A DNA stretch of 64,000 bases from Escherichia phage vB_EcoM_ULIM3: the sequence record OQ850289; one strand, given 5' to 3'. The notes below the pieces were generated by a model. That model saw only the letters and a program-made list of their open reading frames with translations, was not told where the DNA came from and did no database searches. The translations under genes were made by a program, and so were the position numbers. Positions 37,703-39,638 of the stretch are shown one piece after another; positions within the stretch are counted from its first letter, which is position 1, and each line of letters starts with the position of its first letter.

Positions 37703-37746
37703 AATGACCTCAAAGTTATATTAAATTTTGTATTACATTGAGTATA

Positions 37747-37775
37747 AAAATAAGCTATAACACCTGACTTGTCAA
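37747..37775 (-). promoter_or_regulatory. sigma70-type promoter (minus strand) for 37319-37702
   Basis: minus-strand TTGACA (37775-37770), 17-nt spacer, TATTTT (37752-37747); flanked by 9-bp inverted repeat taagctata/tatagctta. Confidence 0.5.
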
Positions 37776-38140
37776 CAGATTTTATAGCTTATTTGGCAGA
37801 TTTTTTATAAGGCTACTGCCATCCTTCCATACCAAACCTCACCTGACCTCGCCTAACCCTACCTTACTCCACCATACAGCACCTTATTAAAACACCCTGT
37901 TTAAAGACCTTTTAAAAAGGTAAGTCTCATTTTAATGTAGCTGAGACTAACTACCCATACCTCACCCTACCAGACCCTACCGAACATCACTTAAAAACCC
38001 TCTTAGAAGACTCTTAAGTGATGTAATCGAATTTTAATGTAGCTCCGATTAACTACCCATACCTCACCTCACCCAACCATACCATGCCTTGCCAGACCGC
38101 ACCTTACCTCATTAAAAGACCCTCTTAAAAGACCTTTTAA

Positions 38141-38166
38141 AAAGGAGCCTCCGAAGAGGCTACCTA
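38141..38166 (-). terminator. intrinsic terminator (minus strand) after 38173-38613
   Basis: minus-strand ggtagcctc-ttcg-gaggct(a)cc hairpin followed by TTTTT. Confidence 0.7.
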
Positions 38167-38172
38167 GTCAAC

Positions 38173-38613
38173 TTAGAAAGGTTTTCTACGTTGCTTGTTA
38201 ATGTTAGCTTTCATAGCAGCTAAATGGTTTTGCTGTTCAATCAGTCGTGAACGTTCTTGATGACTAAGCGCCATAGTGTTCACATTCTCAATTGCTTGAG
38301 TGGCTTGCTTTAAAGCTCGACCAATCTTACCAGACATTTTGCGTTTTGCAATAGTTGCTTGATGCTTAGGTTCAACCACACGATAACCAACACCCATTGA
38401 AGCAACCAGATAAATCTTCTCTTCTTTAAGAAGCTTTTCAATAAACTTCTCAAGTCGGTTTAGACGTGTAAGTGCATAAGCCTTCATTTCATCTTCGTAC
38501 TTAACAATGTCACCTTGATAAGTTGGCTTCACAATACCTAAGAAGGTGTCCATCTCGGAATGTGATACAGTGTCGCCGTAACTAAACTTTGCTGCTAATG
38601 CTTTTGTATTCAT
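38173..38613 (-). CDS. hypothetical protein (cassette gene 2)
   Basis: 146-aa ORF, basic C-terminus. Confidence 0.5.
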   Translation of the reverse strand: MNTKALAAKFSYGDTVSHSEMDTFLGIVKPTYQGDIVKYEDEMKAYALTRLNRLEKFIEKLLKEEKIYLVASMGVGYRVVEPKHQATIAKRKMSGKIGRALKQATQAIENVNTMALSHQERSRLIEQQNHLAAMKANINKQRRKPF

Positions 38614-38615
38614 AA

Positions 38616-39218
38616 TTAAACGTTACCTTCTGAAATAACTTCTACAGAAAAACGACCAAAGCGTGGACGCCAATCACCTACACCACAAAGGTTACCAGCA
38701 TTTTCCAGAACCATCAGAAGTTCCTCTTTGGTGATTTGCTCTTCATCAAACATCAAACCAAACTCTACAGACCAGTCACGGAAGATTGGACGGTAGCTCA
38801 TAACTCGTGCTGTACCAATCTTAACAGACTTAGCATAGATAAAGTCTGGATTCTTAGCAAGTTCTTGTGGGTTTGCTGGACAGTTCTTGATAGTCATTGG
38901 GAAGACTACATCTGTCAGCATAATGGCTCGGTCAATTACCTTACCAAGTTTGTTGAGTTTTGCACCAGACTTGATACAAGCCTCAATCATCTCACCGTTC
39001 ATAACAAAACCAAGTTGCTCATCGTAGTAACAAGAAGTTACCAGTTGGCTTTCTGCTAAGAGCGCATAGTCTTCGTCAGTCTTTTTACGTTTACTGGACA
39101 GAGACTTGTGATATTTTGTCAGAGGGTTTAATGGGTCTGACAACGTATCGTTATGGCTCAAGAAAGGACGAGTACCAGTGATTTTGATATTTAGCAGTTT
39201 CATAGCATTTAGCTCCAC
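38616..39218 (-). CDS. hypothetical protein (cassette gene 1)
   Basis: 200-aa ORF; no motif recognised. Confidence 0.5.
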
Positions 39219-39638
39219 ACTTTAGTTGATTGTTAAGTTGTTTGTAAAGAACCCTCAACAGAAGACTCTTTAGAAACTTGGTAGATTTTTAACGTGGCTA
39301 CTACCATCCACCCATACCTCACATCACCATACCATACCATACCATACCATACCATACCTGACCGGACCTAACCAAACTCCACAGCACCATACATCACATC
39401 ACACAACCTTATTAAAAGACCCTGTTTAAAGACCCTTTAAAAAGGTAAGTCTCATTTTAATGTAGCTGAGACTAACTACCCATACCAAACAGCACCGCAC
39501 TATGCCTTACCCCACCTCACCGAGCCTCGCCCCACATCACTTAAAAACCCTTTTCAAAGACTCTTAAGGGATGTTGGTGAGTACCCGTTGGTTTATGCTG
39601 CTCAGTATACTCACCAAATTTTCTATGTCAACAACTTT
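39219..39638. repeat. complex repeat region R2 (G-depleted CA tracts, (CCATA)6, conserved hairpins)
   Basis: (ccata)x6 at 39327-39356; hairpin agtctc/gagact 39448-39473; imperfect 10-bp stem catcacttaa/ttaagggatg 39535-39573. Confidence 0.8.

Follow-up and report, generated by a model that had tools for sequence, protein, structure and literature searches.

The 64,000-nucleotide stretch considered here (hereafter the window; Escherichia phage vB_EcoM_ULIM3, OQ850289) contains two adjacent small genes, vipr and vap1, bracketed by two repeat-rich regions, R1 (37703-38172) and R2 (39219-39638). The minus strand carries all genes of the surrounding block, from thymidylate synthase to DNA polymerase, so R1 and R2 are intergenic spacers of a minus-strand operon. 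R2 separates the DNA ligase gene from an open reading frame (ORF) of 195 or 200 aa and R1 separates a 146-aa ORF from a 127-aa ORF; DNA ligase, a helix-turn-helix regulator, DHFR and ThyA are the neighbouring genes of the block. The 3.8 kb around the locus is 98.9% identical to Escherichia phage VpaE1_ev035, the closest relative, and matches 259 phage records, nearly all from Felixounavirus and its sister genera; on sequence, the source phage is assigned to Felixounavirus. The interval 37747-39631 on the minus strand is, with high confidence, a type II Viral Interference Programmable Repeat (VIPR) locus of the SUSP1 clade in a Felixounavirus, in which vipr and vap1 are flanked by predicted arrays of guide RNAs (vrRNAs), two upstream and three downstream. 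Each predicted vrRNA consists of a tract of GGYNN pentamers followed by an H-type pseudoknot tail of about 34 nt, and AU-rich hairpins, termed L-type, lie between the units.

VIPR, a CRISPR-like system with which phages attack competing mobile elements, is already known, and the present locus is a member of its SUSP1 clade. According to the text of two 2026 preprints (bioRxiv 10.64898/2026.04.26.720920 /.720927), a VIPR system comprises the vrRNAs and Vipr, a minimal RAMP protein built of an RRM core, a thumb and a G-rich loop, and in most cases also a vap accessory gene; the SUSP1 clade is delimited by >90% identity to SUSP1 Vipr. The vrRNAs hold 9-16 YNNGG repeats (minimum 4 for detection), with GGY conserved and NN hypervariable, and end in a 3' tail of ~40 nt, which in the SUSP1 clade is a pseudoknot. 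A sequence-only reading of this stretch had known of no described element of such composition. The element is not a new one, as VIPR was described in April 2026, the model being the near-identical locus of SUSP1.

The vipr gene (38616-39203, minus strand) encodes a Cas7-like RAMP protein of 195 aa that begins with the ATG at 39203. This start (MKLLNIK...) is the one used in the solved SUSP1 protein and in all database annotations; a mechanical ORF list placed it at a GTG at 39218 (200 aa). Vipr is identical at 186/190 positions to PDB 36pp_D ('SUSP1 Vipr protein') and at 192/195 (~98%) to the copy in the SUSP1 genome, above the limit of the clade, and it has the G-rich loop. A profile of 39 homologues matched 36pp_D among PDB sequences at E = 1.7e-80, and the published vrRNA-contact residues (H17, E71, M72, R138, C173, D177, W178 and R179) are all conserved. 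When the AlphaFold2 model (pLDDT 94.1) was compared with the PDB by Foldseek, the best ~50 matches (E-values of 5e-5 to 1e-3) were all to chains of CRISPR effector complexes of types III and VII, and those chains with a stated identity were all Cas7-family RAMP proteins, including Csm3 in 5yjd, 6ae2 and 6nbt, and chain E of 6IFN. The preprint text gives this last chain as the Cas7 query of the VIPR authors. The enclosed genes are not passive cargo, Vipr being the repeat-binding protein.

The second gene, vap1 (38173-38613, minus strand), starts 3 nt past the vipr stop codon, the two forming a two-gene operon, and encodes a 146-aa Vipr accessory protein. It shows a single amino-acid difference from the product of the gene downstream of vipr in SUSP1, which is named vap1 in the preprint text; there, type II Vap proteins are predicted to be DNA binders and Vap1 enhances protection in the SUSP1 clade. 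Vap homologues adjoin vipr homologues in the loci L134, L125 and L247. Neither protein received a functional annotation from Pfam, PHROGs, NCBIfam or PADLOC, and the sole library match was a far subthreshold one for Vap in NCBIfam (E = 0.027). The Vipr family comprises >500 homologues, none of them annotated. In the GenBank records MN850577 (heid), MN850566 (garuso), MN850636 (dune), MN850610 and MN850605, both Vipr and Vap appear as 'hypothetical protein' and pieces of the arrays only as unnamed 'repeat_region', the VIPR locus being unannotated in databases. The VIPR identity explains the stretch left under these labels and provides five native guides for target hunting.

R1 and R2 contain the same modules in the same orientation around the two-gene unit, and all four modules proposed by the sequence-only reading were found where it had placed them. 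Tracts that are G-depleted and C-rich on the plus strand occupy 37819-37905, 37946-38005 and 39295-39423, with a GC skew down to -0.69 and -0.83. The block AAAGACC(Y)TTTAAAAAGG is exact at 37903, 38128 and 39428, and with up to three mismatches it has 6 matches versus 0.29 expected by chance. The conserved loop ATTTTAATGTAGC is present exactly three times (37929, 38031 and 39454) and at no other site in the window, flanked by the stems agtctc/gagact and taatcg/cgatta. The stem catcacttaa/ttaagtgatg at 37985-38023 is real, and its R2 copy at 39535-39573 is imperfect. Segments 37881-37960 and 39406-39485 form a direct repeat identical at 78/80 positions, and the run (CCATA)6 reads as (GGTAT)6 on the minus strand, at 39329-39358. 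A repeat finder returned 4-5 copies of a 70-104-nt unit together with the 10-bp stem.

The modules were found at no third place in the 64-kb window or in the full 88-kb VpaE1_ev035 genome. A phage-specific promoter in the 'loop' was rejected as a candidate, the motif being present at these two loci only in the whole genome. So was a known RNA family, as the Rfam 15 scan yielded two snoRNA models only (E = 4 and 8.9), far under the gathering scores. The R1/R2 repeats are not among the direct repeats that the Felix O1 genome paper reports, and the PhageMaP paper on Bas63 contains nothing on these regions.

Three features had been missed by the sequence-only reading: a strict 5-nt period, the informative role of the minus strand, and a pseudoknot between the loop and an upstream motif. 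The units follow one order, in which an L-type hairpin is followed by a C-poor tract, then by the motif GGTATGGGTAGT with a short hairpin, and then by the next L-type hairpin. This order holds in ~45 related loci, among which tract lengths vary from phage to phage by 5-nt steps. The autocorrelation of GG dinucleotides peaks at 5, 10, 15 and up to 30 nt, and a first pentamer profile gave G 0.87, G 0.93, T 0.85, N, N. In 106 tracts from 34 related loci, the second pentamer position is G in 99% and the third a pyrimidine in 100% of cases; positions 4 and 5 reach 1.9 bits of entropy, with 77 unique NN strings. Conserved GGY with hypervariable NN across these loci agrees with the published GGY/NN description.

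The conserved loop had been interpreted as that of a hairpin. The hairpin is present, but the structure is an H-type pseudoknot, because the loop pairs with a motif just upstream: CTAC of the loop with GTAG of the GGGTAG motif, or GTGG:CCAC and AAGG:CCTT in two other tail classes. In an alignment of 22 distinct tails, 93% of the cells are paired and 9/11 pairs change on both sides, whereas only 28-47% of cells are paired in the control in which the columns were slid by 1-3. Helix S1 is 100% paired over four tail classes, and the pseudoknot lies directly 3' of every tract.

The association of gene and array extends beyond this phage. IMG/VR was scanned with the bare DNA pattern (GGTNN)7GGT, without a protein criterion, which returned microsatellites and, in many unrelated viral contigs, non-coding arrays of degenerate pentamers. 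In the contig L165, the ORF ending just before the array has a C-terminus like that of the 200-aa protein of the window, and by tblastn ~40 of the DNA-selected loci encode a Vipr homologue beside their arrays. The G-rich strand is the vipr coding strand in all of the dozen or so loci checked by coordinates. In the reverse test, 75 loci were chosen by protein homology only (37-48% identity), and GGY period-5 tracts were found in 65/75, with 154 tracts on the sense strand versus 1 antisense (within 1 kb before or 1.5 kb after the gene). A strict GGT criterion had detected tracts in 3/75 loci only, a false negative, since high-GC relatives use GGC/GGT. These relatives have the same plan, with other inter-tract hairpins and a second gene like the 146-aa one. 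In two of them (L183, 2300-2880; L247, 4020-4330), 'CAGCG', a 10-bp covarying hairpin, 'CGGTG' and a small hairpin with a GAAA/AAAA loop stand between the GGC/GGT tracts, and this tail design differs from the SUSP1 pseudoknot.

The strand of the repeats was a point of divergence from the sequence-only reading, which had allowed for plus-strand CA-rich RNAs, whose CCUCACC motifs would mimic the anti-Shine-Dalgarno end of 16S rRNA, or which would act in some other way as transcripts. The plus strand is C-rich and G-poor, and a C-rich, G-poor RNA would resemble a Rho loading site. However, no promoter-like site on the plus strand is aimed into the tracts, and the minus strand encodes both the genes of the block and the GGY/NN repeat RNAs. 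Several stems hold G.U pairs that exist on the minus strand only, and the L-type hairpin at 37985-38023 folds with -17.5 kcal/mol as minus-strand RNA versus -8.6 kcal/mol as plus-strand RNA (-9.4 vs -5.8 kcal/mol for another). The anti-Shine-Dalgarno likeness disappears in turn, as CCTCACC is simply GGTGAGG, a motif fully explained by GGYNN repeats, and the G-rich strand is that of vipr in 154/155 tracts of the 75 loci. A function of plus-strand transcripts can be given practically no credence, and the minus-strand vrRNA assignment was retained.

The closest known system is that of SUSP1 (PDB 36pp and the two preprints cited above). It shares the gene order, the GGY/NN vrRNAs, the pseudoknot tail and the arrays on both sides, the vipr and vap DNA is 95% identical, and the locus occupies the same genomic site, with the DNA ligase gene on one side and the downstream operon on the other. 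According to the preprint text, four ~100-nt RNAs that co-purify with Vipr are made during SUSP1 infection, one of them encoded upstream of the genes and the other three downstream. When the grammar described above was applied to the SUSP1 locus, it gave one upstream and three downstream tracts, as in the small-RNA sequencing of the preprint. The present locus differs in having two vrRNAs upstream and three downstream, in its guide content, with one guide shortened and one expanded by (GGTAT)6, and in the host genus, Felixounavirus instead of Suspvirus.

The mechanism was shown for SUSP1 in the 2026 preprints and is transferred here by homology. One Vipr protomer would bind each pentamer, and adjacent protomers would bury the GGY bases and leave the NN dinucleotides exposed. 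The joined NN code would then pair with double-stranded DNA, passing over one target base in three, usually that at the codon wobble position, and the resulting Vipr filament would form an R-loop triplex that blocks transcription. VIPR is a minimal form of RNA-guided DNA recognition, with one ~20-kDa protein and one ~100-nt RNA. In the preprint text, the natural targets of the SUSP1 clade lie mostly in a satellite element of E. coli that parasitises the phage (>=80% NN match), and the authors propose that VIPR is older than CRISPR.

The likeness to the Class 1 CRISPR-Cas backbones (Cas7/Csm3 on crRNA) includes the RAMP fold, the G-rich loop and thumb, one protomer per RNA repeat, a variable guide joined to a conserved structured handle, and arrays transcribed beside the gene. 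On the other hand, the locus has no array of identical repeats and contiguous spacers, repeat analysis showing composite units, and no cas1/cas2, Cas5, Cas6, Cas8 or Cas10 is present at the locus, with no hit in PADLOC. The VIPR period is 5 nt (three hidden, two read), against 6 nt with one base flipped in CRISPR-Cas, and VIPR, whose carrier is a lytic phage, reads double-stranded DNA targets through a gapped code. TRAP, which acts on the Bacillus trp leader, is an oligomer that reads a triplet with 2-nt spacers, ~9-11 or more times, on single-stranded RNA. Both systems place an oligomeric protein on a repeated conserved triplet with 2-nt spacers, but the folds are unrelated, and TRAP spacers carry no information and lead to attenuation, whereas the spacer bases are the guide in VIPR.

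On the minus strand, the locus opens with a putative sigma-70-type promoter, P_A (39604-39631, TTGACA-16-TATACT, 11/12 consensus matches), directly past the DNA ligase stop codon, a position kept in all relatives with or without vipr. P_A would drive the upstream vrRNAs and vipr-vap, and expression of the vrRNAs is inferred from this consensus promoter and the strand-specific folding. An inverted repeat at 39576-39615 (GGTGAGTA ... TACTCACC, 8-nt arms, 24 nt apart) lies over the -10 box and start region of P_A and could serve as an operator or else fold within RNA that reads through from the ligase gene. An imperfect L-type hairpin of type B (39535-39573, minus strand; -10.6 kcal/mol, z = -2.6) precedes vrRNA-a, whose tract (39482-39531, minus strand) has 10 GGYNN repeats with NN = GA TC GA GG AA AT GC GC TT AT and whose pseudoknot tail (39448-39481, minus strand) has helices S1 GTAG:CTAC and S2 AGTCTC:GAGACT. 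Between vrRNA-a and vrRNA-b lies a type A hairpin (39406-39446, minus strand; -12.0 kcal/mol, z = -3.5), which corresponds to the 'ttaaaagaccctgtttaaagacc...' block of the sequence-only reading. The vrRNA-b tract (39314-39405, minus strand) has ~18-19 repeats, several of them degenerate (TGT/AGT), and includes (GGTAT)6; its tail (39280-39313, minus strand) is a pseudoknot of variant C' with S1 GTGG:CCAC and S2 GGTAG:CTACC. A further hairpin, L' (39241-39276, minus strand; -10.2 kcal/mol, z = -2.7), stands just upstream of the vipr ribosome-binding region.

After vap1, an intrinsic terminator (38161 to 38146, minus strand, extending to 38139 with the T-run) reads AGCCTC-TTCG-GAGGCT and then CCTTTTT, and its T-run also serves as the 5' arm of the next hairpin, an L-type hairpin of type A (38107-38147, minus strand). 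The following vrRNA-c tract (38059-38108, minus strand) has 10 repeats, with NN = AA GC CT AA AT AT TG GA GA AT, and its tail (38024-38058, minus strand) is a pseudoknot of variant Cb whose S2, TAATCGG:TCGATTA, holds a G.U pair possible on the minus strand only. The 10-bp stem of the sequence-only reading is the perfect type B hairpin at 37985-38023 (minus strand), with an 18-bp stem as minus-strand RNA (z = -6.3). The tract of vrRNA-d (37957-37984, minus strand), which is probably defective, is shortened to 5-6 repeats and is followed by a type Ca pseudoknot tail (37923-37956, minus strand). Another type A hairpin (37881-37921, minus strand) precedes vrRNA-e, with 11 repeats at 37829-37883 (minus strand; NN = GC AT GG AA AG TA GA CA GA TT AT) and a variant C' tail at 37795-37828 (minus strand; S1 AAGG:CCTT, S2 GGCAG:CTGCC). 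The locus ends with a long hairpin, L'' (37747-37794, minus strand; -17.2 kcal/mol, z = -5.7), an inverted repeat with 19-nt arms, and with a second putative promoter, P_B (37775 to 37747, minus strand, TTGACA-17-TATTTT), whose -35 box is inside the L'' loop and which would drive the downstream 127-aa gene.

A long AU-rich hairpin is thus present before every vrRNA tract, with stem classes A and B, a common central sequence and G.U pairing on the minus strand only. The published tail, of only ~40 nt, does not extend to the L-type hairpins, which may be signals for processing or termination.

Among relatives, vipr-vap is present in 117 phage records, versus 259 that match the locus, a comparison with related phages that the sequence-only reading had suggested. 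The block is lacking in Si3, VpaE1_ev78 and at least 8 IMG/VR contigs (L029, L033, L041, L050, L052, L054, L055 and L056). The vipr-less spacer, of 273-608 bp, contains P_A, hairpin B, 1-2 vrRNA units, an R1-type tail, a hairpin and P_B; such junctions are found at 2504-2785 of L026 (Salmonella phage Si3) and at 2504-2963 of L027 (VpaE1_ev78). In the Si3-type junction, the 5' part of R2 is cleanly joined to the 3' part of R1, the expected product of recombination between directly repeated tails, so that part of the sequence-only reading stands: the two-gene unit is polymorphic, with clean fusions in relatives. Recombination is a side effect of the guide arrays.

This polymorphism, together with a strong promoter and a terminator within the regions, would also be compatible with R1 and R2 being recombination-prone regulatory junctions that have no guide role and enclose unrelated cargo genes. 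Their model would be the promoter-early stem-loop (PeSL) cassettes, reportedly described by Arbiol et al. in 2010 in T4-type phages. PeSL cassettes resemble the present regions as repeated intergenic promoter/stem-loop modules around optional genes, whose recombination leads to polymorphism of presence and order, but they are short regulatory repeats without a cognate binding protein or a pentamer code. Here the enclosed Vipr is 98% identical to a protein solved with exactly such a repeat RNA. Moreover, conserved GGY with near-maximal NN entropy is not expected of a promoter/terminator cassette, and the pairing of gene and array recurs in unrelated phages with entirely different intergenic sequences. 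A purely regulatory role is therefore very improbable, and the VIPR assignment is preferred.

The G-rich non-template tracts might alternatively act as DNA, as an R-loop or G-quadruplex replication origin or as a recombination hotspot comparable to immunoglobulin switch regions. Their degenerate G-rich pentamers occupy the non-template strand within a replication-gene block, with P_A upstream, and deletion between R1 and R2 occurs in nature. The downstream array, however, follows a terminator and not a promoter. Since more than half of the relatives are without most of the array, it cannot be an essential origin, and the Vipr-vrRNA interpretation covers every feature, pseudoknots included. Such a DNA-level role has a negligible probability. 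Several candidates considered from the anatomy of the regions were dropped after the protein partner was identified, namely anti-Shine-Dalgarno mimicry, a Rho-proof leader and a plus-strand rut site; an R-loop origin, G-quadruplex arrays and a TRAP-like attenuator; and REP/RAYT-like hairpins and type III toxin-antitoxin repeats.

The guides themselves are highly variable. They are almost all different among phages with Vipr 99-100% identical, and 4/5 NN strings of the window are unique among the 34 loci compared. R2 is 10 nt longer in the window than in VpaE1_ev035, apparently by two extra GGTAT units in vrRNA-b, which fits pentamer slippage. The vrRNA-d interval, measured between successive tail motifs, is 30 nt longer in VpaE1_ev035 than in the window, and a strict 8-repeat scan of the downstream tracts detected three in VpaE1_ev035 versus two in the window. 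These comparisons point to arrays that evolve over very short times, through slippage of pentamers and minor deletions. In the model proposed, slippage would shift tract length by 5 nt, the tails and hairpins would act as long direct repeats whose recombination gains or loses vrRNA units, and recombination between them would remove or reinstall vipr-vap as one block.

The vipr-vap DNA is 95-100% identical in 111/117 records, whereas that of the adjacent ligase gene (39639-40775), present in 295 records, is mostly 80-95% identical. At the protein level, Vap is 99-100% identical where ligase is 88-99% identical, vipr-vap (38173-39203) being far more conserved than ligase. This excess of conservation suggests either a recent horizontal exchange of the block or a very strong constraint.

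Several points weigh against the VIPR assignment. Five tracts lie on the coding strand, but vrRNA-b (~18-19 repeats, with degenerate GGY and (GGTAT)6) and vrRNA-d (5-6 repeats) fall outside the published range of 9-16 repeats, so part of the array may be inactive. Expression and processing of the vrRNAs are not shown by anything in the window, the proposed roles of the L-type hairpins and of the two promoters do not come from the preprint text, and both VIPR source papers are preprints. No natural target was found: exact 1-nt-skip patterns hit IMG/VR only at chance level (4 times for guide a, 3 for guide c and 1 for guide e), as did that of guide e in the GTDB genomes, with a single hit in a Saprospiraceae metagenome-assembled genome. 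A BLAST search for satellite-borne vrRNAs, with the array as query and 5,426 E. coli genomes as subjects, returned nothing.

The locus could instead be a VIPR locus in decay, with Vipr and Vap intact and the arrays being eroding relics kept mainly for the promoters of neighbouring genes. The shortened vrRNA-d and the over-long vrRNA-b, with its microsatellite run and TGT/AGT units, would fit such a decay, as would the failure of the target scans and the presence in vipr-less relatives of vrRNA-like units with an exact-GGY fraction of 0.67 versus 0.77. Against it, vrRNAs a, c and e have 10-11 repeats and intact tails, internal vrRNA degeneracy is frequent according to the preprint text, and vipr-vap is far more tightly conserved than ligase, as described above. 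In addition, the target scans required exact matches and covered IMG/VR and the GTDB genomes; the VIPR authors had used an E. coli pangenome. Decay of the arrays is improbable, although less so than the regulatory alternative, and the regions are preferably read as arrays of guide RNAs.

The only exact IMG/VR match to the first ten NN of vrRNA-e is at 3849-3877 of L257, a phage contig (10/12 NN overall, 20 bases). The match is located towards the 3' end of a portal-like ORF of 772 aa and keeps its reading frame, the skipped bases being those at wobble positions. The matched sequence is absent from E. coli genomes, and the match may be due to chance. Regarding self-targeting, no site in the window rose above background: the only one with >=80% NN was a 16/20 match of guide c at 61602, a rate equal to that of shuffled guides. 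A local target scan over 2.2 Mb of collected loci likewise remained at background level.

In the vipr-less phages, each orphan vrRNA has a GGYNN tract and a pseudoknot tail, lies between two tandem promoters, and carries one of a diverse set of guides; the guide of vrRNA-e of the window is identical in the vipr-less contig L033. In the preprint text, nothing was found on orphan vrRNAs in phages that lack vipr, on the L-type hairpins or on recombination (the main paper contains neither 'orphan' nor 'recombination' as a word); such orphan units and the inter-vrRNA hairpins are possibly new details. A tentative and rather unlikely idea is that the orphan vrRNAs are not relics. During co-infection they might borrow the Vipr of a relative in trans or soak it up as decoys (an RNA anti-VIPR, comparable to RNA anti-CRISPRs), and the tails and L-type hairpins could serve as substrates that exchange guides and the vipr-vap block. 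If this were true, exchange at tails and hairpins would be a Cas1-independent route to new VIPR specificities. Orphan vrRNAs, 5-nt steps, guide diversity and block polymorphism, population-level details that did not turn up in the preprint text, all bear on how arrays diversify without an adaptation module.

The 127-aa gene downstream of P_B (37319-37702, minus strand) encodes a protein with a signal-peptide-like N-terminus (MKKILLAAAMVMAMNLPVNA). In SUSP1/Moogle-type phages, it is swapped for an unrelated gene (63% local DNA identity, over 129 nt only).

Finally, very large GGTNN arrays are present in some IMG/VR contigs (L166, L062, L069, L115, L157 and L165). L166 has >20 tracts between 2679 and 12920, including 7424-7651, and one of its tracts has 45 pentamers. 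L165 and L062 have six or seven tracts, with only the 10-nt 'AAGGCTAATG' spacer between them and no hairpins. These big arrays look like other array architectures presented in the preprint text.

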